Below, in pieces: positions 8,870 through 61,917 of a stretch of DNA of 64,000 bases. The DNA is from Bacillota bacterium (GTDB taxonomy: Bacteria > Patescibacteriota > Patescibacteriia > Patescibacteriales > UBA12465): assembly GCA_050259635.1 (NCBI GenBank), contig JBLNBA010000002.1, forward strand, positions 154,906-218,905. Direction: 5' to 3'. Position numbers and translations under genes: made by a program. Positions within the stretch are counted from its first letter, which is position 1. Each line of letters starts with the position of its first letter. A model generated the notes under the pieces. That model was given only the letters and a program-made list of their open reading frames with translations. It searched no databases and was not told where the DNA came from.

Positions 8870-10204
8870 CTAGCGGAGTCCCGTGCTGCCGAAACCGCCG
8901 TCTAAGCGGCTGGTATCATTTTCCACCTTTCCTTCTTCTATCTTGGGAAATTCTACTTTCTGGATTAAGAGCTGAGCTATTTTCTGTCCCGCTTGGATAT
9001 TATATATATCTTCGCTCAGATTCTTGAAGACGACCATGATTTCTCCGCGGTAGCCGGAATCTATGACTCCGCCCATCGTCTTATATCCTTGGGCGGCTAA
9101 GCCGCTCTTATCCCAGATCAAACCGGCATACCCCTCCGGAATCATGAGCTTGACGCCGGTGCGGATGCGATCCGTGCCATAGGCGGGGACGGAGACGTTT
9201 TCGCAGGCATAAAGATCAAGGCCGGCATCAGTGGCATGTGCCCGCGTGGGCAGCTTGGCTTCTGCGTGAACTCTCTCGGCAAGGATTGCTGGTTTCTCAT
9301 TATCCGTGACAGAGGCAGGGAGGGCAGTGGCAGCGGTAACGGGGGTAAGATTCTCTCGCGTGTCTTCCGGGTGGGCGGGGACTCCTTTTTCTCCCCTGTC
9401 TGTTTGCCCGATCTCCGCTTTGGGGGTGTCGATGAACTGTGGCAGGTTACTGCCGATTTTTCCCTTGCCTACGAGGATATCCGCCACCGGTTGCATGCCG
9501 GCCGGCTTTTTCGTACCGCCGATGCTCAGGATGCGGTTGACATAGAGCCAGACAAGGTAGTTTATATCTTCTCGGCTCATAATCTCGCCGTTGCGGGTGC
9601 AGCGGATGAGACGGAAGTCCGGCATCGTCTGTGCTATTTCCAGATATACCTGTTCTGCTTTTTTGAGATGCTGCAGGTTTTCTTCGTGGATGTCTTTGGT
9701 TTTTCCTTTCCAATCCTCGCGTCCGCGGTCCTGAGCCATCTTTTGGGCTATTTCCGCCTCTACATGCAGGATGAGATAGAGATCGGGCTTGGGAATACGG
9801 AAGATCTTGTATTCGATCTCGCTTAACCAGTTGAAGAATAACTTCCTTTCCAAAGCGTTTTCTATTTTCCCCCCCTGGTGGGCGAAGCTGGCGGAAACAT
9901 AACGGTTACAGACCACGATCTTGCCCTGGGAAAGCCATTCGCGGATCTTGAAGCTGGCATCAAAACGATCGGTGGCGTATAAGATCGAGGCTGCATACGG
10001 ATTGACGTCATCTGCGCCTCCGTATTTTCCTGAGAGATATTCTTCCACCATGCCCGCGGATTTCTGATTATATTGCGGAAAGTCTGCCAACTCCACGTCG
10101 TATCCTTCGGCCGCGAGCTTGGATACCAAAAGTTGCAGCTGTGTAGTTTTGCCGCTGCCGTCGGTGCCGTCTATGACAATGAATTTTCCGGGATAGGATG
10201 ACAT
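8870..10204 (-). CDS. tmk-dut: fusion protein: thymidylate kinase (N-terminal) + dUTPase (C-terminal)
   Basis: Tmk P-loop IVIDGTDGSGKTTQ and DRFDAS motif; all five dUTPase motifs at the C-terminus (AGLDLY, KSG, GVIDSGYRGE, KIAQLL, RLDGGFGSTG); low-complexity linker about 100 aa. Confidence 0.8.
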   Translation of the reverse strand: MSSYPGKFIVIDGTDGSGKTTQLQLLVSKLAAEGYDVELADFPQYNQKSAGMVEEYLSGKYGGADDVNPYAASILYATDRFDASFKIREWLSQGKIVVCNRYVSASFAHQGGKIENALERKLFFNWLSEIEYKIFRIPKPDLYLILHVEAEIAQKMAQDRGREDWKGKTKDIHEENLQHLKKAEQVYLEIAQTMPDFRLIRCTRNGEIMSREDINYLVWLYVNRILSIGGTKKPAGMQPVADILVGKGKIGSNLPQFIDTPKAEIGQTDRGEKGVPAHPEDTRENLTPVTAATALPASVTDNEKPAILAERVHAEAKLPTRAHATDAGLDLYACENVSVPAYGTDRIRTGVKLMIPEGYAGLIWDKSGLAAQGYKTMGGVIDSGYRGEIMVVFKNLSEDIYNIQAGQKIAQLLIQKVEFPKIEEGKVENDTSRLDGGFGSTGLR

Positions 10205-10822: not shown

Positions 10823-12121
10823 TTAGCGTTGTTCCTTCAATACGATGTCATGGAGTCCGCGGCGCACATCCCAATCATCCAGGTCTAGATCGCAGTGGAG
10901 CGCCACTTCCGGCAGATTCTGGCGGAGGGCTTCATACATCTTGTGGGCCACTCGTCTGAGACTAGGGTGGACAGTCTTTCCCGAGCGTAGTTCGGTTACA
11001 TAGATGGCGGAAGTGAGAGGGTTGGTGATGTGGCAGAAGACATTGAAGCCCATGGCGATGTAGTATTGCTTGAGTTCGGGGCTTGCTTCGAGTGCATCCA
11101 CCTTGGTTTTCTGGGAAGCGATGAGGTTCTCCGCATCAAGGCGCATCTCTTCTGGCAGCTGTTCTAGGTACCAAGATTGGAAACCGAGTTGCGTGGTGAG
11201 CAGAGGAGTGCGGGCGATAGCACTGCGGTGGCGCTGAATATCCCGATATGAACCGTAATCGAGTAGGAACTCGAAGCGGCAATTTCCGAGGTCGGCCATG
11301 AAATAGGGAAGATTGGTTTTGATCGGGCGCTTATCCAATGCTTCCTGGAAATTCTTCAATTCATTACGGTCGATGTCGGTTGAGAATGAGAATTCCTTGG
11401 GGTCTTTCGGGGCGAAATATGAATATTTTGCCATCATCTCTTCACGGTAGGCTTCTTGTTCCGGATATTGCTGGTGGGAAAAGCTGTTTTCATAACGGGA
11501 GCGCAGTTCGGCAAGAATCTGTTCGGCTAATTCGCGCATCTCCTGGAGAGGATGATGCCTGAGAAGAGAGAGCTTATCCCAGGCTTGGCGCAGATTGGTG
11601 TGCCAGCTGAGCTGAGTGGTGATGCCGGCCGGCAAAAAGCCGCGCATGATGTCGAAGGAGCGGGCGCTGATTGCCTTGTCATACATTTTCTCGTCCTCTT
11701 CGTCTCGGCGGGGGTATTTTTCCTTGAGGAAGGGAGTGATCCTTTCACGCCCTTTGATATAAAAATCCATCCAGGCATCGATAATCGCTTTGGATTCGGC
11801 AGTCGCTAAAGGGTCTATTATCGCTTGGCTGGCCATGTCGATGTAGCGGGTGCTGGTCTCCTGTCCGCTATATAGTGGCCAGTCCTGCACCGCCTTATCG
11901 GCTAGGATGCTCAAGCCTTCGATGAAGATGGTAGTGCTGCCGCAATCCGCAATAGAAGCGTGCCCGTAACCGACGTAGAACGTGGACATGAATTTGCCGG
12001 AGCCGCTCTGCCTTACTTTTTCCACATGCTCTTCGACGCTTTTTGGGCTGCGGGAATATAGCGCCTGCATCATGGCGGTGTCCTCCGGGTTGAACTCATC
12101 GTAGACGAATACTTTTGCCAT
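10823..12121 (-). CDS. thyX: FAD-dependent thymidylate synthase ThyX-like, long form (432 aa)
   Basis: N-terminal GYGHASIADCGSTTIFIEGLS resembles the ThyX core, and ...STRY follows; an RHR motif is present only in the second half (QRHRSAIAR); context with dCMP deaminase, Tmk and Dut. Confidence 0.5.
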   Translation of the reverse strand: MAKVFVYDEFNPEDTAMMQALYSRSPKSVEEHVEKVRQSGSGKFMSTFYVGYGHASIADCGSTTIFIEGLSILADKAVQDWPLYSGQETSTRYIDMASQAIIDPLATAESKAIIDAWMDFYIKGRERITPFLKEKYPRRDEEDEKMYDKAISARSFDIMRGFLPAGITTQLSWHTNLRQAWDKLSLLRHHPLQEMRELAEQILAELRSRYENSFSHQQYPEQEAYREEMMAKYSYFAPKDPKEFSFSTDIDRNELKNFQEALDKRPIKTNLPYFMADLGNCRFEFLLDYGSYRDIQRHRSAIARTPLLTTQLGFQSWYLEQLPEEMRLDAENLIASQKTKVDALEASPELKQYYIAMGFNVFCHITNPLTSAIYVTELRSGKTVHPSLRRVAHKMYEALRQNLPEVALHCDLDLDDWDVRRGLHDIVLKEQR

Positions 12122-12131
12122 ATGTTTGAAA

Positions 12132-12659
12132 TTATTGGTCTTTATATACTGTCATCATTTCGGAGGCCAGAAAGAATTCTACTTTTGCCAGTCCGAAAAT
12201 TTCTTTGCTTCGTGAACCGGCGTGGTAGTCCTGGGCGCAGACGACCCGTTTTATCCCGGCATTGATAATCATCTTGGCGCAGGTATAGCAGGGAGTCATC
12301 TTGCAATATAGCGTACCGCCTTCTAAGGGGATGCCCATGCGAGCCGCCTCGCAGATGGCATTCTGTTCGGCATGGGTAGTGCGGATGCAATGTCGGCTTG
12401 AGGTGCCGTCTTCGTGAGTAACGGTGTGCATCTCGTGCCCCACCTCATCGCAGTGGGGAGCGCCTACGGGGGAGCCGACATAGCCGGTCGCCACGATGCG
12501 GCGGTCTTTCGTTATCACACAGCCCGCGCGTCCCCGATCACAGGTACCGCGAGTGCCGACCATTACGGCGATTTTGAGGAAATATTCATCCCAAGCCGGG
12601 CGAACGTAGCTGTTTTCTTCGCTCATAGATTTCAGGTGAGATAATGAGGTTAAAAGCAA
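12132..12659 (-). CDS. dCMP deaminase (zinc-dependent cytidine/deoxycytidylate deaminase family)
   Basis: HAEQNAI ... PCYTCAKMI zinc-binding motifs; start may be the internal Met at about 12626. Confidence 0.8.
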   Translation of the reverse strand: MLLTSLSHLKSMSEENSYVRPAWDEYFLKIAVMVGTRGTCDRGRAGCVITKDRRIVATGYVGSPVGAPHCDEVGHEMHTVTHEDGTSSRHCIRTTHAEQNAICEAARMGIPLEGGTLYCKMTPCYTCAKMIINAGIKRVVCAQDYHAGSRSKEIFGLAKVEFFLASEMMTVYKDQ

Positions 12660-25485: not shown

Positions 25486-25824
25486 ATGGAAAAGATCAAT
25501 CTAGAAAACTCGCAAGCGCAGATGAGAAAAGGCTTTTTGGAATATTGCATCCTTCTTATCATTTCCAGGCAAAAGGCTTACGCCTCTGATATCCTGGCAG
25601 AACTCAGAAAGGCAGACTTGCTGGTTGTTGAGGGAACGCTGTATCCCTTGCTTAGCCGTTTGAAAAATTCAGGCATGCTGGATTACCACTGGCAGGAATC
25701 AAAGAGCGGTCCGCCGCGTAAGTACTATGAGCTTACCGCTCTCGGACGGACGATGCTCAAGCAGTTGGACGGGACCTGGGAAACGCTTCAATTATCAATT
25801 AGCGCCTTACGCGAATTACGTTAA
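25486..25824 (+). CDS. PadR-family transcriptional regulator
   Basis: motif CILLIIS...YASDI...GTLYPLLSRLKNSGML, a PadR winged HTH. Confidence 0.75.
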   Translation: MEKINLENSQAQMRKGFLEYCILLIISRQKAYASDILAELRKADLLVVEGTLYPLLSRLKNSGMLDYHWQESKSGPPRKYYELTALGRTMLKQLDGTWETLQLSISALRELR

Positions 25825-25831
25825 TAAAAAT

Positions 25832-27355
25832 ATGGAAAAGACAATCTCAATCAATTTAGGCGGCAATCTCTTCTATGCCGAAGAGGACGCCTACCAACGC
25901 CTAGACTCTTATCTTAAGGAAGTGGAACGCTACTTCAAAGAGCAGGAGGATGACAGCGAGGAGATCCTTAAGGACATAGAGACCAGCTTGGCCGAGCACT
26001 TTACCGCGGCGGGGGCCGGTGACCTTAAGCGGGCTGTAACCCTTTCCGAGGTGGAGGACGCCTTGAAAGACATGGGTACTATCCATGACTTCTCTGGCGG
26101 CAATGAAGCCCGGGTGGAAGCGCCCTCGGATGGTCCGCGCCGCTTTTATCGCGATAGCGAGCATGCGGTAATCGGAGGCGTTTGCTCTGGGCTCGGGCAT
26201 TATTTCGGCGTTGATCCGGTTTGGATCCGCCTGCTCTTCGCACTGTCAATCTTTTTCTGGGGGTTTGGTGTGGTTATCTACCTCTTGATCTGGATAGCCG
26301 CTCCGGAAGCCAAAACGGTTTCGGAAAAACTGGTAATGCAGGGTGCGGCCGTGAATCTGTCTTCCTTGTCCGCTAAAATGAAGGAAGGGATCGATTCGGA
26401 AAAGGTGAGGCAGACAGGAAATGCTATATCCCGGTTTTTCAATCGCTTGTTTGATCTTATCGGCCGCCTTATCAGAGGTATCGGGCCACTTATCAGAATT
26501 TTGATTGCGCTTTTCTTCGGCTTCTTCGCTCTCGCCGGATTCGTTTTGATCAGCTTGATGGGTGTCGTGGCGGTTTGGAGCGGTCGGCAGTATTTCGACC
26601 CCGGCTTGATCGCCGCCATCGGCTGGCCTTATCCTTGGCTGGTTCTCAGCAGCGTCTTAGTCTTGGTCTTACCTTGTTTAGCGGCCGTTTTCGCCGCTAT
26701 CGCCCTCTTGCGCAAAAAGAATTGGGTTTCGGTCGGAGTTTGGATTGGGCTATTCCTTGTCTGGTTTGTGAGTGTTCTGGCAGCCGGGGCTTTATTCAGC
26801 GATTCCTTTGTGAGAGTGAAGCCATATGTAGAAGAGGTCGGACAGGCATCTATCCCGCTCCAGGGCGAGGCCGATACGGTCCGGCTCGAAGCCCCGTATT
26901 ATCTTTCGGTCGTTCCGGGAGAGAAGCTCGCTTTACATGTCGAGGGCCATCCGGCAGATATCTCCCGGGTAAGGGCGGAGATAAAGGACAAGGTGTTAAC
27001 CATTAGCCGCGATGACCAGGAATGGCTGTATGTCAATTACGGCCGTAACGTGAGACTGGTGTTAGAGGCCCCGGTGTCCATGCGGAAGGTGGAAATACAG
27101 GGAGGTGGCTTTTTGGATGCAGGCCAATGGCCAGGACAGCCCTTGCAGGTTATATATAAGGACAGAAGCCTGGACATAAGGACGGTAAACAGCACTTCAT
27201 ATTATATCCAGGAAGGAATCCCTTCCGCTGGCAGCGCCCAGGCGGGCACATGGGGTGTCACTGAAGGCGATGCTGGAAATATCCGGATGCAGATCATGAA
27301 AGAAGGTCCTCAAATGGAGGCAGTACCCGTGATCAATGCGATTAAGGTCAGATAA
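25832..27355 (+). CDS. PspC-domain membrane protein
   Basis: PspC domain IGGVCSGLGHYFGVDPVWIRLLF; follows padR; ORF-track start at 25727 overlaps padR and was rejected. Confidence 0.7.
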   Translation: MEKTISINLGGNLFYAEEDAYQRLDSYLKEVERYFKEQEDDSEEILKDIETSLAEHFTAAGAGDLKRAVTLSEVEDALKDMGTIHDFSGGNEARVEAPSDGPRRFYRDSEHAVIGGVCSGLGHYFGVDPVWIRLLFALSIFFWGFGVVIYLLIWIAAPEAKTVSEKLVMQGAAVNLSSLSAKMKEGIDSEKVRQTGNAISRFFNRLFDLIGRLIRGIGPLIRILIALFFGFFALAGFVLISLMGVVAVWSGRQYFDPGLIAAIGWPYPWLVLSSVLVLVLPCLAAVFAAIALLRKKNWVSVGVWIGLFLVWFVSVLAAGALFSDSFVRVKPYVEEVGQASIPLQGEADTVRLEAPYYLSVVPGEKLALHVEGHPADISRVRAEIKDKVLTISRDDQEWLYVNYGRNVRLVLEAPVSMRKVEIQGGGFLDAGQWPGQPLQVIYKDRSLDIRTVNSTSYYIQEGIPSAGSAQAGTWGVTEGDAGNIRMQIMKEGPQMEAVPVINAIKVR

Positions 27356-28306: not shown

Positions 28307-28894
28307 ATGGCCACAATCTTGGAAGACCAAAGCGAAGCTGGAATAATAAATGCCGCCAAAGCCGGGAACTCCGATGCTTTCGGTAGTCTTTATGACGCCT
28401 ATATCAAGAAGATCTATAACTTCGTATATTATAAGACGCTGAATCAGGAAAACGCTGAAGATATCACGAGCACGGTCTTTATCAAAGCCTGGGAAAAGCT
28501 GTCCCAGTTCCAGGATGGGAATTTTGGTGCCTGGCTTTATGCCATTGCCCGGAATGCCGTTGTGGATTTCTACCGGCGGGAAAAGCCGGCGCTCGATATT
28601 GAAGACTGCTGGGATCTGTCCGATGGACAGGATTTCCTCGGCAGCATCGACCGAGTGCTGGAGATTTCTAAAGTGAAGGAGGCAATGTCATCGTTACGTG
28701 TCCAGGAGCGGGAAATCCTTATCATGCGTTTTTGGCAAGAACTGTCTTTCCAGGAAATCGGTGAACGTTTAGGCAAGAATGAGGGAGCAGTAAAAATGGC
28801 TGCCAGCCGTGCCTTGAAAGCCTTAAAAACTAAGATTCCCTTCGCTCTTTTCCTGCTCTTGCCGGGGATCCTACAATTATATGCAAGAAAATGA
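28307..28894 (+). CDS. ECF-subfamily RNA polymerase sigma factor
   Basis: sigma-70 region 2 (YNFVYYK...AEDITSTVFIKAW) and region 4 (LSFQEIGERLGKNEGAVKMAASRAL). Confidence 0.8.
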   Translation: MATILEDQSEAGIINAAKAGNSDAFGSLYDAYIKKIYNFVYYKTLNQENAEDITSTVFIKAWEKLSQFQDGNFGAWLYAIARNAVVDFYRREKPALDIEDCWDLSDGQDFLGSIDRVLEISKVKEAMSSLRVQEREILIMRFWQELSFQEIGERLGKNEGAVKMAASRALKALKTKIPFALFLLLPGILQLYARK

Positions 28895-37058: not shown

Positions 37059-39713
37059 TTACTTCCTTGTTTTGCTTTCGATCGGGCTGACAGTGATAAG
37101 GTCTTTGCCGCTAATATCGATCTTGACCTGATCGCCCTCCTGGATCTGGTTCTCGATTATCCGCAAGGCGAGCTCGTCGAGGATCAGGTTTTGGATTATT
37201 CTCTTTAAGGGGCGGGCACCGTAGGTGCTGTCATATCCTTTTTCGGCTAATACCTTCTTGACTTTAGGGGCGATGCGCAGGGTGATATTCTTGGCATTGA
37301 GCCTTTTTTCCACCTTATCAAGTTCCAGGGCGACGATCTTTTCCAGGTCGGCGGCCTTGAGGCTCTTGAAGAGGACGATTTCATCGATGCGGTTAAGAAA
37401 CTCCAATTTGAAGTGTTCGCGGAGGATCTTATCCACTTTGTCTTTCATTTGCTTGGAGCGTTCCTCGTCTTTTTTCGGTTCCTCATTCTCTCCGCCGAAA
37501 CCGATGGAAAATTGCTTGATTACCTCGTTGCCCAGGTTGGAGGTCATGATGATCACCGTATTCTTGAAATTGACCGTGCGTCCTTTGGAATCAGTGAGAC
37601 GACCGTCATCGAGGATCTGCAAGAGCATATTGAACATATCCGGATGGGCCTTTTCGATTTCATCGAGCAGGATGACGCTATAGGGATGGCGCCGGACCCG
37701 TTCGGTGAGCTGTCCGCCTTCATCATAGCCGATATATCCGGGAGGGGAACCGATGAGCTTGGCGGCCGAATGCTTTTCCATGTATTCGCTCATGTCGAGG
37801 CGGATAAGAGCATTTTCGTCATCGAAAAGGAAGCGCGCTAAAGCCTTGCCGAGCTCCGTCTTGCCGACGCCGGTAGGACCGATGAAAAGGAATGATCCGA
37901 TCGGGCGCTTTTCTTCATTGATGCTGGCGCGTGAACGGCGGATGGCGCGGGCAACGGCGGCGATCGCTTCATCTTGGCCGATCACTTCGTTACCTAATTC
38001 CTGTTCGGCATTGGCTAATTTTTTCATGTCGTCAGCCAGCATCTTGTTAACCGGGATCCCGGTCCAGCGGGCTACCACTTTGGCGATATCTTCTTCGCCG
38101 ACTTCTTCCTTGAGGATACGTTGACCTTTCTTTTGGATCTTTATTAGGCTGTCTTGCAAGACCTTTATCTTATTTTCTAAATCAGGGATAAGTCCGTACT
38201 TGATTTTTGCCACCTCCGTAAGATCCGCTCCCTGGCGCTGGCTGATTTCGGCGCGCATCTTGAGCTCGTCGATTTCCCGCTTGTGGTCGCGGATGGCCGA
38301 GATGATGTTCTTTTCATTATTCCAATGTAATTCCAGCTGGTTGGCTTTCTCTTTGAGTTTGGCCAGCTCCTGGTTTATACCTCTTAGCTTGGGAGATTTT
38401 TTATCAGACGTAAGCAGGGCCGCCTTATTGATCTCTAATTGTTTGATCCGGCGCTTGAGCTGGTCTAATTCATCCGGCATCGAATCGATTTCCATGCGCA
38501 GGGAAGAAGTGGCCTCATCTATGAGGTCAACGGCTTTATCCGGCAAGAAGCGATCGCTGATATAGCGGTTGGATAATTTGGCGGCGGCGGTCAGGGCGTC
38601 GTCCGTAATGCGGACGCCATGGTGTACTTCGTATTTTTCCTTCAGGCCGCGGAGCATGTTGATAGTATCTTCGACGCTCGGCTCATTGACTATGATAGGT
38701 TGGAAACGGCGTTCTAAGGCAGCGTCTTTTTCGATATATTTCTGGTACTCTTTGGTCGTGGTGGCTCCGATCGTCCGGAGTTCACCTCTAGCCAAGGCAG
38801 GCTTGAGCATGTTGGAGGCATCCATCGATCCTTCCGAGGAGCCAGCTCCGATGAGGGTATGGAGTTCGTCAATAAAGATGATTATGCGTCCATTCTGGCT
38901 TTTAACTTCCTTAAGGACAGCTTTGAGGCGGTCTTCGAATTCTCCTCTAAACTTTGCGCCCGCCACGAGCATACCAAGATCCAGGGTGATGATCTCCTTA
39001 TTCTTTAAGTTCTCGGGAACATCGCCGGCAACAATACGTTGGGCTAATCCTTCGACGATCGCCGTCTTGCCGGTTCCGGCTTCCCCGATTAAAACCGGGT
39101 TGTTCTTAGTGCGGCGAAGCAGCACTTGCATTACGCGCCTCACTTCGGTATCGCGACCCACTACCGGATCAAGCTTCTCTTGCCGGGCAAGCTCCGTGAG
39201 ATTAGTGGTATATTTTTCCAGTACTTTGAATTTTCCTTCGGGAGTGGGATCGGTGATCCGCTCGGTGCCTCGGAGTTCTCCCAGAATAGCGCGTACTTTC
39301 TGGTGTTCAACGCCGAAATTTAAGAGGATGGCTTGGGCCGGCGAAGCGATGCCGATTAATGCTAGCAGGATGTGCTCAGTGGAGATAAATTCATCGCCCA
39401 TGCCGTCTGCTTCCTTTTTTGAGCGTTCCAATATGAGGGCAGTTTCATTCGTTCCTGACACTGCTTGTATCGGTCCGGATTGGATGTCGACTTTGGATTT
39501 TGGCAGTTTCTTGATTTCACCGACCGTGTAATTCTCAAGGATATCCGGGTCGATGGCGAGTTTTTCCAGGACGGGTTTTACCAAGCTTTCCGGCTGTTGG
39601 AGCAGGGCGAGCAGGATATGGACACCTTCGATGTTGGGTTGGCCGAAATTAGCCGCAATCGCTTGGGCGTTTATAATGGCTTCTTGGGATTTTTCCGTAA
39701 ATTTATTAAACAT
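37059..39713 (-). CDS. clpB: chaperone ClpB (two AAA+ domains, long M-domain coiled coil)
   Basis: Clp-N repeats, D1 GEAGTGKT, long coiled coil, D2 [15 protein letters not shown]; 884 aa. Confidence 0.85.
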
Positions 39714-40263: not shown

Positions 40264-42924
40264 ATGGAACAAAGGGAACTTCAATTCGAGACCGTTGGCG
40301 GACGTTTTGGCACTTGGCATCTGGGGCGCTTCCTCTATTGGGAGCAACCGCTAAGCCGCTCCAAAGTGACTTCCCGGCGCTTGCGCGAGAAAGCGGACCG
40401 CCTCGTGGATGGCGCCGCTTTTCTGGTATTGGCTGCCGGCTGGTTGTCCCTTATCGCTTGGGTTTATCTCAATTTTGGGTCTATCGCCTCGGATCCTTCT
40501 TCCTTGTTAACCTTCTTTGAAAATCGTCACCCGCTGCTTCTGACTTTCTTCTTTTCTCTCTGGTTCGATCTTTTCCTTTTCTATCGTAAAAGCGAAGCCT
40601 CCTTCCAAAGACAAAAGATTAATTACCGCATTCTCAAAGAGGAAAATAGCAAAGGCAAACAGGATCTCGAGGTTTCCGCTGCTTCCGGGGCGGCTTTGAG
40701 GCGGACGCTCGAAGATTCCTTTTTGATCGCCGCTAAGCTTAAGCAAACGGAAGTCTCGGTCATGCATTTTTTCCGGGCGCTGCTCCTTGATCCGAAAGTG
40801 CAGGAGATGTTCATCCGTTTAGGGATAGATGCCCGGGCTTTGGCTGGCAAAGTGGAGAAGCACATGAAAGGGAAGCAATCTTCCGACCGGCACCCGGCAA
40901 TATCTGCCGCTTTGCAGCAATGTCTCATCTCCGCCTATGCGGATGCCTTCTATCGCCGGCAGGCCTCGATCGAGCCGCTTAATGCCGTAATGTTCTGCTA
41001 TCATGCGGATAAGCTCCTGGCCGAAATTCTTTATGACCTCGAAGCCGATGCGGATAAAATCGCCAATGCTTGTGAATGGTTGCAGATCAATCGTGAATTG
41101 GCCGAGCGCTTACATTCTTTCAGCCGCTCCGCCGCCCTAAAGCCAAAGGGCAGCATGGATCGGGCATATACGGCGGTTGCTTCTCCGACCCTCGATCATT
41201 TTTCCCATGATCTGACCCTGGCTGCAAAATATGGAAGGCTTGAACTTTGCGTGGGGCGCCAGGTGGAGACGGATTCGATCTTTGAGATTATGGAGAGCGG
41301 CCAATGCGGCGTGCTCCTGGTGGGACATAGCGGCAGCGGTAAAACCTCAGTCATCAACGGCATTGCCCAGCTGATGGTTGAGGAGCGAGTCCCTAAATTC
41401 TTGCAGGATAAGCGTTTAGTCGAAATTGATGTTTCACGCTTAGTATCCGGCGCTACGGCTGCGGAGGCGGAATCTCGCCTTCTATCTAGCATCTCGGAAG
41501 CTTCCCGGGCCGGCAATATTGTTTTACATATCGCTAACGTCGAGAACTTGGTGGGAATAAGCGCCGGCAGCGAACAGAGCTTGGATTTATCCGAAGTCTT
41601 GGCTGAAGCTTTAACCCGCCGAGCCGTATATTGCTTGGCGACCATTTCTTCGGCGAATTATGCGGCGGTAATCGAGAAGAGCGCTTTGGGCGAAGCGATG
41701 ACCACCGTGGGAATAAAGGAACCGGCAGATAACCAAGCGATCCAAATGGTCGAGAGCAAAGTATCTTCCCTCGAGGGTGGCTACGGAGTCTTCATTACCT
41801 ATGGAGCTGTGGAGGCGAGTGTGAAATTATCCCAGCGTTTCATCCATGATAAGGCACTGCCTGAGAAAGCGGTCACACTATTGCGCGATGCTGTGATCCG
41901 GGTTGCCAAGCTGAGGAAACATGATCCTCGGCATTCCATCTGCCTGCGTGAACACGTCGCCGGCGCTTTGAGCGAAAAGACAGGAATTCCCCTGCAGAAG
42001 CTTACTGAAGATGAGGGCAAGAAACTTCTGTCTTTGGAAGAAAATATCCACCAGCGCATGGTGGGGCAGGAAGAAGCAGTGGCGGCGGTTTGCGCCAGCT
42101 TGCGCCGTGCCCGTGCGGAAATGAAAGATGCGAAACGGCCTATCGCCAGTTTCCTCTTCTTGGGACCGACTGGCGTGGGCAAGACGGAACTGGCAAAGAC
42201 GGTATCGGAAGTATATTTCGGTCGGGAGGATTATATGATCCGCTTGGACATGAGCGAATACCAAGACGCTGGAAGCACCAGGAAGATGATCGGCGATGTC
42301 GACGGAACGTTAGGTTTTTTGACTGAAGCGGTTAGAAAGAAGCCTTTCTCTCTCATCCTTCTGGATGAAATCGAAAAGGCCCATCCGGATATCTTGAATC
42401 TCTTCTTGCAAATGCTGGATGACGGGCGCCTTACGGACGGCCAAGGAAGGACGATCAGTTTTACGGAATCTATCATTATTGCCACCTCTAACATTGGCGC
42501 CTTGTATATCCAGGAGCAGATCAAAACCGGTACCGATATCAAGCAGATCCGGCAAGAGCTTATCGATAACCAGCTGAACAAGCACATGCGTCCGGAACTC
42601 ATCAACCGCTTTGACGGAATTATTGTTTTCAAGCCTCTTACGGAAGAAAATCTTTACCAGATTGCAACTTTGATGCTAAAAGGCATAAAGAAGCGCTTGG
42701 CCGAAAAAGGCGTTGGCCTCCAAGCGGATAGGATGGGCGCGCAGAAATTGGCTAAGGCAGGATATGATCCGAAGTTCGGCGCTCGCCCCTTGCGTCGTTT
42801 GCTGCAGGAAAAAGTTGAAGACAAGATCGCTAATAAGATCTTAGCCGGTGAACTGAAGCGACGCGATACGGTGGTTATCGACGCGCAAGCGGAGATTGCC
42901 GTAGTAAAAGGGAAGGAGTTGTAG
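40264..42924 (+). CDS. membrane-anchored ClpA/B/C-family AAA+ ATPase paralog (N-terminal TM segments, Clp-N repeats, two AAA modules, D1 Walker B degenerate)
   Basis: 2 N-terminal TM; D1 GHSGSGKT but HIANVEN instead of hhhhDE; D2 canonical ([26 protein letters not shown]). Confidence 0.6.
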   Translation: MEQRELQFETVGGRFGTWHLGRFLYWEQPLSRSKVTSRRLREKADRLVDGAAFLVLAAGWLSLIAWVYLNFGSIASDPSSLLTFFENRHPLLLTFFFSLWFDLFLFYRKSEASFQRQKINYRILKEENSKGKQDLEVSAASGAALRRTLEDSFLIAAKLKQTEVSVMHFFRALLLDPKVQEMFIRLGIDARALAGKVEKHMKGKQSSDRHPAISAALQQCLISAYADAFYRRQASIEPLNAVMFCYHADKLLAEILYDLEADADKIANACEWLQINRELAERLHSFSRSAALKPKGSMDRAYTAVASPTLDHFSHDLTLAAKYGRLELCVGRQVETDSIFEIMESGQCGVLLVGHSGSGKTSVINGIAQLMVEERVPKFLQDKRLVEIDVSRLVSGATAAEAESRLLSSISEASRAGNIVLHIANVENLVGISAGSEQSLDLSEVLAEALTRRAVYCLATISSANYAAVIEKSALGEAMTTVGIKEPADNQAIQMVESKVSSLEGGYGVFITYGAVEASVKLSQRFIHDKALPEKAVTLLRDAVIRVAKLRKHDPRHSICLREHVAGALSEKTGIPLQKLTEDEGKKLLSLEENIHQRMVGQEEAVAAVCASLRRARAEMKDAKRPIASFLFLGPTGVGKTELAKTVSEVYFGREDYMIRLDMSEYQDAGSTRKMIGDVDGTLGFLTEAVRKKPFSLILLDEIEKAHPDILNLFLQMLDDGRLTDGQGRTISFTESIIIATSNIGALYIQEQIKTGTDIKQIRQELIDNQLNKHMRPELINRFDGIIVFKPLTEENLYQIATLMLKGIKKRLAEKGVGLQADRMGAQKLAKAGYDPKFGARPLRRLLQEKVEDKIANKILAGELKRRDTVVIDAQAEIAVVKGKEL

Positions 42925-43316: not shown

Positions 43317-44888
43317 TTGTCAATTACGTCTATGTTACCTTATATTACTACCTTCATTGCCATTTCTATAATTTCCTTCCTTGTTGGCAGGGGTGTGATT
43401 AGCGTAGCTGAGCGTTTTCATATTGTAGATAGTCCGGATGGAGTTAGAAAGCTGCAATCCAAACCGATTCCTCTTCTCGGAGGGACGGCGATCTTTATTT
43501 CCTTCTTCACCGGCCTGGCAGTTTTCTTGCCGACACTCCTTTCTGGGGACCTGGACATATCTCATTGGATCGGTTTCTTCGCGGGGGCATCCGTCCTGAT
43601 GCTCGGCGGGTTCTTAGATGACAAATATGATCTCAACCCACGCATCCAGATTATTTTTCCCATCATAGCTTCCATTGCTCCCATTATCGGCGGGGTTGGT
43701 ATTGAGCGCTTATCCAATCCTTTCGGCGGTATTTTTGCCGTTCCGGCCTTACTAAGCGCGGCGCTAATCATGGTCTGGCTCTTGGGGATGATGTACACGA
43801 CAAAATTATTGGACGGCGTGGACGGGTTGGTGAGCGGCCTGGGGGTGATCGGTGCTTTGGTTATATTTTTATTCACCTCCACTACCAGATATTTCCAGCC
43901 GGACATTGCCCTAGCAGCATGGATTTTCTCTGCCGCTTGCCTGGGCTTTTTGGTTCTGAATTTTAATCCCGCCAAGATCTATTTAGGGGAAGGGGGCTCG
44001 CTTTTGATCGGTTATGTGCTCGGAGTCTTGGCGATTATTTCCGGCGGGAAGATCGCTATCGCCTTGCTCGTGATGGGCCTGCCTGTCCTTGATGTCGCCT
44101 GGACGATCGTCCGTCGCCTTTTGCGGGGTAGAAATCCCTTCCGCTTCGCCGATCGCTCTCACTTGCATCATCGATTGCTGGATTTAGGGTTATCACCGCG
44201 GCAGACAGTAGTCATATTTTATGCCTTTGCGGCCGCCTTCGGAGCTAGCGGCCTTTTCCTGCAGAGTCGGGGCAAGCTGGTGGCTCTTTCTTTGCTGCTT
44301 GCCATCATGCTCGCCTTGGTGATTTTCTTTTCCCAATATGAGAGGCGCAAGCGCCCCCGCCTCCTTTTCCATGTCTGTTGCGCCCCATGCGCTTCTTATT
44401 CCACCCTTAAGAAGCTTTTACCCCGCTATCGCGTGACTTGGTATTTTCTTAATTCCAACCTGTCTTCTTTCTTGGAATACGAAGCGAGACTGAAAACGGC
44501 AGAGAAGGCCGCGAGGCTTTTGGGGGTCGAACTGATAGCGGTTCCATACGATCATGAAGCGTGGAGCGAAATAGTGAAAGGGCACGAAGATGACCCGGAA
44601 AGAGGTGACCGCTGTCGTATCTGTTATCGCGACCGCCTATCTAATGCTTATAAGTTTGCACAGGACGGCGGCTATGAATTCTTTTCCACGAGCTTGCTGG
44701 TGAGCCCATATAAGGATGACAAGGCTATCCGGGAAATCTGCCGTTCACTGGAGAAAGAAGGGGGGCCGAAATTCCATGACGAGGATTTCCAAGCCGATGA
44801 CGGCTTCCACCGTTCGATCGCTTGGGCGAAAGAAAAGGGGCTGTATTTGCAGAAGTATTGCGGCTGTGAATTTAGTCTAAGAAAATAA
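43317..44888 (+). CDS. fusion: WecA/MraY-family polyprenyl-phosphate N-acetylhexosamine-1-phosphate transferase (N-terminal) + QueH(DUF208)-like Cys-rich domain (C-terminal)
   Basis: GT4 motifs DDKYD, KLLDGVDGLVSG, ADRSHLHHRL; C-terminal LLFHVCCAPCASY ... CRICY ... YCGCEFS resembles epoxyqueuosine reductase QueH; start may be at 43332. Confidence 0.55.
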   Translation: MSITSMLPYITTFIAISIISFLVGRGVISVAERFHIVDSPDGVRKLQSKPIPLLGGTAIFISFFTGLAVFLPTLLSGDLDISHWIGFFAGASVLMLGGFLDDKYDLNPRIQIIFPIIASIAPIIGGVGIERLSNPFGGIFAVPALLSAALIMVWLLGMMYTTKLLDGVDGLVSGLGVIGALVIFLFTSTTRYFQPDIALAAWIFSAACLGFLVLNFNPAKIYLGEGGSLLIGYVLGVLAIISGGKIAIALLVMGLPVLDVAWTIVRRLLRGRNPFRFADRSHLHHRLLDLGLSPRQTVVIFYAFAAAFGASGLFLQSRGKLVALSLLLAIMLALVIFFSQYERRKRPRLLFHVCCAPCASYSTLKKLLPRYRVTWYFLNSNLSSFLEYEARLKTAEKAARLLGVELIAVPYDHEAWSEIVKGHEDDPERGDRCRICYRDRLSNAYKFAQDGGYEFFSTSLLVSPYKDDKAIREICRSLEKEGGPKFHDEDFQADDGFHRSIAWAKEKGLYLQKYCGCEFSLRK

Positions 44889-44889
44889 T

Positions 44890-45639
44890 ATGAAGGGCAT
44901 TGCCATTATAATTATCGTCGGCCTATTCTCGTTTTCGCTGCCGGCATTTGCCAACGGCCTGCCGGATGGCGACCGGGATGGCGTGCCTGATAGGGATGAG
45001 AAAGAGATCTATCATACCAACCCTGCTTCGTCCGATACCGATGGCGATGGTTTTAAGGATTTCGAAGAAATCACTACCGGTTATTCGCCGGTAAATCCCA
45101 AGCCTGTCAGGCTGATTGATAGCGATATCGACAATGACGGCTTAACGGAAGCTTGGGAAATTAAATTTAAGTCAGATCCTTTTGTTGCCGATACCGATGG
45201 CGATGGGAAAAAAGATGGCGAAGAGGTGGACAAGGGTTATGATCCGGTAGCCGGAGAGGGAGCGAAATTAACGAAGAGCCTGCGAATCTCTTTGGGGGCG
45301 CAGAAGCTGGATTATCTCCTAAACGGCTATTCTTGGAAAAGCTTCCCGATATCCAGCGGTCGTCCGGACATGCCGACCACGAAAGGCGAATTCATTATCA
45401 GCAATAAGATTGAGAAGGCGTGGTCCAAATCATACGGCCTGTGGATGCCATATTGGCTTGGTCTCGCCGGGACGAGGATGGGCATTCATGAGCTTCCCGT
45501 CTGGCCCAATGGTTACCGGGAAGGGGAGAATCATCTTGGCAAGCCCGTATCACATGGCTGCGTCCGGCTCGGCGTGGGGGCGGCCAAATATATATATGAA
45601 AGGATGGAACCCGGAGAAAAGGTTGAGATAGTAAGATGA
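44890..45639 (+). CDS. L,D-transpeptidase (YkuD domain) with N-terminal thrombospondin-type-3-like Ca-binding repeats
   Basis: repeats DTDGDGxxD; catalytic SHGCVRL. Confidence 0.7.
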   Translation: MKGIAIIIIVGLFSFSLPAFANGLPDGDRDGVPDRDEKEIYHTNPASSDTDGDGFKDFEEITTGYSPVNPKPVRLIDSDIDNDGLTEAWEIKFKSDPFVADTDGDGKKDGEEVDKGYDPVAGEGAKLTKSLRISLGAQKLDYLLNGYSWKSFPISSGRPDMPTTKGEFIISNKIEKAWSKSYGLWMPYWLGLAGTRMGIHELPVWPNGYREGENHLGKPVSHGCVRLGVGAAKYIYERMEPGEKVEIVR

Positions 45640-61518: not shown

Positions 61519-61917
61519 ATGAGGATTTTTATTTATACACTCTGTTTAATAAGTTCGCTGTTTATTTCTTTTCCTGTACTTGCCCAAGGCAGTGGTGCTC
61601 AGACTGACAATGGGATTGGCAGCGGGGCGCAAACGATTCCGCCAACGGCAGCGACGGATGAATTGACTAATCCTCTCAAGGGAGTGGATACTCCTCAGGA
61701 ACTTATAGGGTCCGTTATTGAAAAGCTTTTCGGGATTATCGGGTCCCTCGCTCTGGTAATGTTTATCTATGGCGGTCTGATTTGGATGACTTCCTCCGGC
61801 AGCTCTACCCAAGTCAAGAAGGGAAGGGATATAATTGTCTGGGCGATTGTCGGCATGGTGGTTATCTTTTCTGCCTATGCCCTAGTCCGGTTCGTTATAC
61901 AGGGGATTGGAGCTTAA
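61519..61917 (+). CDS. TrbC/VirB2-like pilin-type small membrane protein (signal peptide plus two C-terminal TM helices)
   Basis: architecture only. Confidence 0.3.
   Translation: MRIFIYTLCLISSLFISFPVLAQGSGAQTDNGIGSGAQTIPPTAATDELTNPLKGVDTPQELIGSVIEKLFGIIGSLALVMFIYGGLIWMTSSGSSTQVKKGRDIIVWAIVGMVVIFSAYALVRFVIQGIGA

Follow-up and report, generated by a model that had tools for sequence, protein, structure and literature searches.

The protein described here joins members of two well-known enzyme families. QueH, a soluble tRNA enzyme, is represented by the free protein of about 180 aa from Thermotoga maritima (7LC5/7LC7/9DEU). To our knowledge, no reductant that serves QueH in vivo has been identified to date. 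The polyprenyl-phosphate N-acetylhexosamine-1-phosphate transferases (PNPTs) include the WecA/TagO transferases, MraY and human DPAGT1. E. coli WecA crosses the membrane with 11 transmembrane (TM) helices and has a cytoplasmic C-terminus. We analysed a stretch of 64,000 nucleotides of Patescibacteria DNA (the window; positions 154,906 to 218,905 of contig JBLNBA010000002.1, assembly GCA_050259635.1) and found in it one gene that encodes a WecA/TagO-like PNPT with a QueH domain at its C-terminus.

Each half of this protein resembles its closest described relatives. The QueH half is a full-length family match to T. maritima QueH, with 30-32% identity, the same fold and the same CC...CxxC...CxC pattern, but it forms the C-terminal part of a 523-aa integral membrane protein. 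It also differs in having a Cys in place of T. maritima D13, as does the majority of the family, and a Leu in place of the Arg of the YRQ motif. For the PNPT half, WecA is the best-scoring curated model, and the homologs studied here show no variation in the DDxxD, DGxDG and His-rich loops. By contrast with WecA/TagO transferases, the fused protein adds a C-terminal QueH and falls far short of the WecA cutoff. In an AlphaFold2 (AF2) model the PNPT half shares the fold of MraY (Foldseek TMt 0.70-0.78) and human DPAGT1 (0.64-0.68). Its sequence match to MraY models is however weak, and the aligned MraY and DPAGT1 chains (about 325-390 columns) hold nothing matching the C-terminal QueH. Literature searches in QueH/DUF208, VanZ and Patescibacteria/candidate phyla radiation (CPR) contexts found no paper on a PNPT-QueH fusion. 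It is apparently an undescribed domain-architecture variant of the two families, widespread in one candidate phylum. We consider it probable that the protein is a bifunctional fusion of two independently working enzymes, joined when a tight junction between their genes collapsed in a streamlined genome.

Domains and authenticity of the fused protein

The fused gene is a single uninterrupted open reading frame (ORF) in which the PNPT domain is followed by a complete QueH domain (Table 1). This bears out the initial annotation, which had proposed such a fusion from the DNA alone. Translation probably starts at ATG 43332, giving 518 aa, because an NCBI protein that is 100% identical to the fused ORF over 518 aa (P0001) has this length.

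A frameshift or misassembly had been considered possible at about position 44330. Some relatives carry the two genes split by junctions of 1-50 nt, so one indel could interconvert the forms, and a sequencing frameshift, a lost stop codon or a chimeric assembly could in principle mimic a fusion. The junction is nevertheless clean, with no homopolymer, no break in the frame and a continuous base composition. An independent Logan assembly of SRR24085901 contains the identical fused protein and the same neighbour genes. A protein search retrieved at least 1914 proteins at E<=1e-10, and in all of the best 120 of these 1914 (55-71% identity to the query, 513-786 aa) both Pfam domains lie in one protein, whether the source was NCBI, JGI, ENA or Logan. 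The fused state also marks a coherent clade, as described below. A frameshift or misassembly at this point is thus excluded, and the chance that the fusion is an artefact of any kind is negligible.

The N-terminal domain belongs to the PNPT superfamily by its HMM score, its catalytic-loop motifs and its 10-11 TM fold. It matches Glycos_transf_4 (PF00953) over aa 84-242 (E=5.6e-28, 98.4 bits, cutoff 27). The top curated NCBIfam model was WecA (TIGR02380), with 125 bits over aa 12-338. Since this lies under the equivalog cutoff of 326.05 bits, the domain is WecA-like and not a demonstrated WecA, and its sugar specificity is not assignable from the score. The domain was also considered as the MraY of this genome and rejected (TIGR00445, 54 bits against a cutoff of 192.05). 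The initial annotation gave about 10 TM helices, whereas hydropathy and AF2 secondary structure agree on 11. The catalytic loops (DDKYD, DGVDG and HLHH) and the C-terminus all lie on the cytoplasmic side. Two of the signature motifs reported earlier are present, DDxxD (in LDDKYD, aa 100-105) and DRSHLHHRL, but the third, given as NxxDGxDGL, reads K163-LLDGVDGL, with a Lys that is invariant in the clade. To score conservation, the query was aligned with 120 fused homologs (121 sequences). Mean identity of these homologs to the query is 63% in the PNPT and 54% in the QueH domain, and both domains are under constraint.

The Cys-rich C-terminal domain is QueH by family HMM, fold and conserved Cys set (HxCC-x2-C/D, RCxxC and YCGC), and it follows the last TM helix on the cytoplasmic side, confirming its earlier identification as QueH/DUF208. 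PF02677 matches aa 349-522 over model positions 1-174 of 175 (E=1.5e-53, 181.9 bits, cutoff 23.5), so that both of the Pfam families proposed for the protein score far above their cutoffs. The T. maritima sequence (7lc5) is matched at E=8e-23. The AF2 model of the fused protein (pLDDT 91.4, pTM 0.82) aligns with 7lc5 over 176 columns with a TM-score of 0.90 and a root-mean-square deviation of 1.4 A. The domain starts with LLFHVCCAPCASY (aa 349-361) and contains CRICY (aa 433-437) and YCGCEFS (aa 514-520). Its seven Cys residues (C354, C355, C358, C433, C436, C515 and C517) are invariant in the 121 sequences. Across 150 diverse QueH representatives, 33 positions are each at least 85% conserved, and all 33 are kept in the fused subfamily, with soft spots at G496, the Arg of YRQ and one Tyr/Phe position. 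Residue roles were assigned from conservation and from the titles of PDB mutant entries (C9S and D13N). C358 aligns with T. maritima D13, for which a D13N mutant structure exists (PDB 9dco); the position is Cys in 127 and Asp in 17 of the 150 representatives.

TM11 (aa 320-344) leads almost straight into the first QueH strand (aa 348-353) by way of a short basic segment ending in RRKRPR (aa 343-348). In homologs this tether spans about 7-20 aa. It is basic and variable in length and sequence, with no column conserved at 90% or more. Net charge was compared as a weak test for lost RNA binding, and no loss was seen in the fused QueH domain (+4.1) relative to free QueH (+2.6). QueH domains joined to VanZ, described below, are the most basic (+9.2).

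In the mechanism we propose, the PNPT half would use a UDP-sugar to load undecaprenyl phosphate with a HexNAc-1-phosphate at the cytoplasmic face of the membrane, a step predicted to start a lipid-linked envelope glycan. QueH would be kept at the cytoplasmic membrane surface by its tether of about eight residues. The seven invariant Cys of the domain are predicted to ligate a [4Fe-4S] cluster and an adjacent iron, and the predicted reaction is the reduction of epoxyqueuosine at position 34 of tRNAs with a GUN anticodon, yielding queuosine.

Fused, split and re-partnered forms in relatives

At least 584 relatives were confirmed among GTDB species representatives, and the best 80 of these 584 were kept as loci. 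Their architecture was determined by domain-wise tblastn and inspection of the junctions. PNPT and QueH share one ORF in 32 of the 80 loci. Eight loci carry a PNPT gene and a separate soluble QueH starting MKKLLL(Q/H)(I/V)CCAPC. The ATG of this QueH overlaps the PNPT stop codon (ATGA) in L044, L066 and L068, and elsewhere the two lie within about 15 nt. The split pairs are orthologs of the fused halves in the same synteny (PNPT 59-72% and QueH 50-54% identical to the query), but they are made as two polypeptides, the QueH being soluble with its own ATG.

Other loci show further arrangements. In L032, L053 and L054 the PNPT gene is followed by a gene that fuses a VanZ-like domain of about 130 aa to QueH; the Pfam VanZ cutoff is passed by L032 and L054. 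In L041 and L045 the PNPT, the VanZ-like protein and QueH are encoded by three separate ORFs. A PNPT ortholog without QueH within 10 kb was found in 29 of the 80 loci. Of these 29, L037 and L047 retain the syntenic block, L049 has YkuD directly after the PNPT, and Uhrbacteria loci such as L064 and L072 carry the PNPT ortholog. Finally, a triple fusion of 731-786 aa, in the order PNPT-QueH-TM-TSP3-YkuD, is seen in 8 of the 120 listed homologs. The CGCEFS of QueH here passes straight into the YkuD signal anchor, and the protein would span the membrane a twelfth time.

The history of these forms was examined on a neighbour-joining tree of the PNPT domain (100 bootstraps), with Fitch parsimony for architecture. 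The fused state marks one large clade. Split loci nest within this clade in 99 of 100 bootstraps, and a fused ancestor was reconstructed in 82 of 100. At least 13 changes of architecture (range 10-19) are required. Unfused PNPTs retain TM11, indicating that the protein natively ends in the cytoplasm and that losing a stop codon or shifting the frame is enough to bring about fusion. No topological adaptation was therefore needed. We propose that an overlapping or near-overlapping junction collapsed in an ancestor of the Falkowbacteria-type Patescibacteria clade, and that the arrangement was later repeatedly undone, re-partnered or extended. The junction of split relatives, an ATGA or a gap of at most 50 nt, would be the starting point for such a collapse, and the fusion would have been neutral, leaving both enzyme activities in place. 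The free QueH of nested relatives, the QueH-less PNPT orthologs and the YkuD read-through fusions all support the autonomy of the modules, as do other fusions in this genome and the range of partners that QueH has elsewhere.

We also asked how the pair compares with a functionally coupled ('Rosetta stone') fusion. Obligate association was not found: PNPT occurs without adjacent QueH, and QueH is also found on its own or joined to more than 10 other partners. Adjacency was conserved, in the eight split loci and in five loci with VanZ between the two or fused.

QueH partners and the queuosine pathway

The partners of QueH were surveyed across the family by a full-library HMMER search with the QueH domain, which gave 3023 representatives (50%-identity clusters) at E<=1e-3; the best 150 of the 3023 were analysed. 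Free soluble QueH was the commonest form (73 of the 145 classable representatives). The only clearly over-represented partner was VanZ, found in 19 of the 150 by Pfam and in 23 by length and position. Other partners were uracil-DNA glycosylase (UDG; four cases), radical SAM enzymes (three), and RNase HII, PNPT, BirA-type ligase and methyltransferases (two each). Sua5, a CCA-adding enzyme, alanine racemase, Maf, a TadA-like deaminase, 5-formyltetrahydrofolate (5-FTHF) cyclo-ligase and HAD were each found once. QueH is thus an unusually promiscuous fusion partner, and this scatter of unrelated proteins makes the identity of a partner a poor guide to function. Sua5 (P0353) serves t6A synthesis, the CCA-adding enzyme (P0325) has an HD domain and the radical-SAM enzyme (P0269/P0286) a Radical_SAM_C domain. 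The alanine racemase, UDG, BirA and Maf fusions are represented by P0357, P0259/P0288, P0338 and P0302, respectively.

VanZ-like-QueH proteins of about 300-340 aa are the commonest architecture other than standalone QueH in the best 150 clusters, and we found no paper on them in literature searches. They (e.g. MCX6798338.1 and MCG2701148.1) resemble the PNPT fusion in that the N-terminus of QueH is tethered to a multi-pass membrane domain via a short basic linker, and in several genomes the orthologous PNPT gene directly precedes theirs. They differ in using as their anchor a VanZ-like domain (about 130 aa, multiple TM helices predicted) in place of a PNPT, and in occurring also away from PNPT genes. 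In L084 the VanZ-QueH gene lies inside the PNPT block and in L083 it lies elsewhere, between MgsA and PrmC, indicating a stable architecture in its own right. Named members belong to Falkowbacteria/Parcubacteria. These fusions may supply context for the poorly understood VanZ-like domain.

The frequency of VanZ anchors, together with the PNPT anchors, raises the alternative that membrane anchoring of canonical QueH was itself selected, through a PNPT in one clade and a VanZ-like domain in others. Anchoring would place QueH near a membrane electron source or, in salvaging organisms, near preQ1/queuine uptake. The short basic linkers common to both anchors, the two contexts of VanZ-QueH and the Falkowbacteria/Parcubacteria affiliation of its named members all speak for such selection, and the high charge of VanZ-type QueH would suit a domain that binds RNA at an anionic membrane surface. 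However, close relatives nested in the fused clade carry a free soluble QueH, which is also the most frequent form in the family as a whole. No electron-transfer partner or queuosine-precursor transporter was seen near the gene, and in small cells membrane localisation may matter little kinetically. On balance, we judge selected anchoring to be unlikely.

Genes of the queuosine (Q) pathway were sought by Pfam over essentially all window ORFs of at least 110 aa, and by tblastn of the window and the 80 loci (1.33 Mb) with E. coli Tgt and QueA sequences serving purely as probes. One canonical Q substrate, tRNA-Tyr(GTA), is encoded in the window. Five Uhrbacteria-type loci carry a bacterial Tgt (PF01702; 45-48% identity to the E. 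coli probe) 4-5 kb upstream of PNPT, and Tgt is abundant in Patescibacteria. The queuosine pathway thus exists in the phylum. In sister lineages, Tgt lies near PNPT without QueH (Uhrbacteria-type) and QueH lies near PNPT without Tgt (Falkowbacteria), the same neighbourhood thus holding two different queuosine genes.

Several results weigh against two independently working enzymes joined by a neutral event. No gene for Tgt, QueA, preQ0-preQ1 synthesis (QueC-F) or a transporter (YhhQ or QueT) was found in the window or the 10 kb upstream of it, and no Tgt, QueA or other Q-pathway gene was found within 10 kb of about 45 QueH-bearing loci. An Rfam scan of the window, the upstream 10 kb and the QueH-bearing loci gave no preQ1 riboswitch. 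No Tgt match was tied to a fusion-bearing contig, the Tgt list compared going down to about 66% identity, so the canonical substrate of QueH is presumptive in these genomes. Leu replaces the near-invariant Arg of YRQ in 30 of the 121 fused members, including the query. The pTM of the AF2 model, for a two-domain protein, may mean defined interdomain packing. QueH also stays beside the PNPT gene in three different arrangements, and its anchoring by two unrelated domains (PNPT and VanZ) is more regular than neutral fusion predicts.

A QueH-like domain coupled to envelope synthesis and not to tRNA would account for part of this pattern. Such a domain might sense redox state or iron by means of its Fe-S cluster and gate the PNPT at the first committed step of lipid-linked glycan synthesis. 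Alternatively, it might carry out a two-electron reduction of a nucleotide-sugar or polyprenyl-linked substrate, for example by deoxygenating an epoxide or similar group. PNPT and QueH stay together in fused and in split form and also where VanZ lies between them, in many cases translationally coupled, and the neighbours are envelope genes (a YkuD L,D-transpeptidase, the VanZ-like genes and, nearby, BacA). The high pTM may suggest a fixed interdomain geometry, with QueH on the side of the membrane that holds the PNPT active site. An envelope role would also explain why QueH persists on or near PNPT and VanZ proteins though no Tgt or QueA was detected in the window or at any QueH-bearing locus. 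Yet all conserved QueH positions are kept, the fold is essentially identical to that of the tRNA enzyme and the charge of the domain is unchanged. The synteny block also holds ClpB, PGK and enolase, and adjacency is not a functional signal in this clade. PNPT orthologs without an adjacent QueH, and the unrelated enzymes joined to QueH elsewhere, likewise argue against coupling, and we regard a role in envelope synthesis as quite improbable. The initial annotation had offered a redox-regulated envelope enzyme or a repurposed DUF208 domain. Neither is favoured by the retention of all 33 conserved positions and the free QueH of nested relatives, and both are further weakened by the absence of QueH beside several PNPT orthologs and by its many partners elsewhere. 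Repurposing nevertheless keeps a small probability, as no Tgt or QueA was tied to a fusion-bearing genome. A bifunctional fusion of two independently working enzymes is thus the explanation we prefer.

Gene neighbourhood, annotation and significance

A block of genes is conserved in the clade, consisting of a small hypothetical gene, a ClpB-like ATPase, PNPT[-QueH], YkuD, a beta-propeller protein, a hypothetical, a PDZ protein, PGK and enolase. Unrelated housekeeping genes are as syntenic as the envelope genes, making adjacency weak evidence for shared function. The ClpB-like ATPase is the most conserved neighbour of PNPT (Table 1). Where conserved, Uhrbacteria included, it is always immediately upstream of PNPT on the same strand. 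Its N-terminal segments are hydrophobic and its first AAA domain is weak, and it adjoins a canonical ClpB (37059-39713, - strand). GT2 glycosyltransferases, an NTP-transferase and an epimerase are encoded within the window, and BacA/UppP just upstream of it; these genes support an undecaprenyl-phosphate-linked glycan pathway.

The window has the look of a reduced Patescibacteria genome, with MiaA, MiaB, GatB, ThyX, a MurA-like gene and glycolysis genes. Another fusion of neighbouring enzymes is a thymidylate kinase-dUTPase (Tmk-dUTPase) of 444 aa (8870-10204, - strand). It adjoins a ThyX ORF of 432 aa (10823-12121), about twice the length of its Thy1 match. A 342-aa protein (176-1204, + strand) shows an unusual pairing of sigma-70 region 4 (aa 208-258) with an RNA polymerase alpha C-terminal domain (aa 281-335). 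A 542-aa PspC-domain membrane protein (25727-27355, + strand) adjoins an ECF-type sigma factor (28307-28894), and a pilin gene of the type IV secretion system (T4SS)/TrbC type lies at 61519-61917 (+ strand).

Table 1. Features of the fused gene and its flanking genes (window positions), with related loci and proteins (positions within each locus, or identifiers).
Feature	Position	Strand	Remarks
Whole fused gene	43317..44888	+	523-aa ORF from TTG 43317; stop TAA 44886-44888
PNPT domain (Glycos_transf_4, WecA/TagO-like)	43317..44351	+	aa 1-345; 11 TM; N-terminus outside, C-terminus inside
DDKYD, Mg-binding Asp-Asp motif	43617..43631	+	aa 101-105; D101 and D102 invariant in 121 sequences
K-LLDGVDGL, catalytic loop	43803..43829	+	aa 163-171; K163, D166 and D169 invariant
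DRSHLHHRL, His-rich cytoplasmic loop	44151..44177	+	aa 279-287; D279, H282 and H284 invariant
TM11	44274..44348	+	aa 320-344; brings the chain back to the cytoplasm; kept in unfused orthologs
Short basic linker, QYERRKRPR-type	44337..44360	+	aa 341-348
QueH domain (PF02677/DUF208)	44361..44882	+	aa 349-522; cytoplasmic; Fe-S (predicted)
CCAPC	44376..44390	+	C354, C355 and C358 invariant
CRIC	44613..44624	+	C433 and C436; invariant family-wide
CGC	44859..44867	+	C515 and C517; invariant family-wide
Membrane-anchored ClpB-like ATPase, upstream	40264..42924	+	886 aa; in 69 of 80 loci
L,D-transpeptidase, downstream	44890..45639	+	signal anchor, TSP3 repeats and YkuD; starts 1 nt past the fused-gene stop
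Split PNPT and QueH loci	L009, L036, L040, L044, L059, L066, L068, L073
Triple-fusion homologs	P0038, P0040, P0044, P0048, P0058, P0070, P0072, P0074
VanZ-QueH loci	L032 3992-4903; L053 ~11043-11954; L054 ~11475-12440; L083 8001-8948; L084 8001-8906
VanZ-QueH representatives	P0242-P0244, P0247, P0250, P0253-P0255, P0264-P0268, P0272
Tgt in Uhrbacteria-type loci	L064 4305-5438; L065 1371-2492; L072 5094-6218; L074 5597-6763; L076 5605-6783

Named homologs of the fused protein come from Candidatus Falkowbacteria or from the 'Patescibacteria group'. The initial annotation knew of no obvious precedent, which does not hold at the level of databases: this architecture is standard across a large clade of Patescibacteria and has already been annotated automatically. 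NCBI names the fusion proteins 'epoxyqueuosine reductase QueH', JGI names them 'UDP-GlcNAc:undecaprenyl-phosphate GlcNAc-1-phosphate transferase' and a GW2011 Falkowbacteria genome labels the fusion 'Glycosyltransferase, group 4 family'. Many metagenome-assembled genomes (MAGs) with Patescibacteria-specific synteny have been deposited as 'uncultured Gammaproteobacteria', 'Bacillota bacterium', 'Planctomycetota' and 'Deltaproteobacteria' (L003, L004, L008, L009, L015, L080 and others, and P0001). These labels are probably errors in the source records.

If the protein is indeed a bifunctional fusion of two independently working enzymes, the lesson is chiefly one of annotation and evolution. The bifunctional proteins of a whole CPR clade are named after one half, QueH at NCBI and WecA at JGI, and pathway reconstructions can thus miss either the enzyme that initiates an envelope glycan or the last step of queuosine synthesis. 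The clade would also be a natural experiment in gene fusion and fission, in which one pair of genes is found fused, split, re-partnered with VanZ, extended by read-through into YkuD or missing its QueH. If the repeated membrane tethering of QueH in these organisms is adaptive, it could point to the electron source of the enzyme or to a link with precursor salvage, and would give the VanZ-like domain a defined context.

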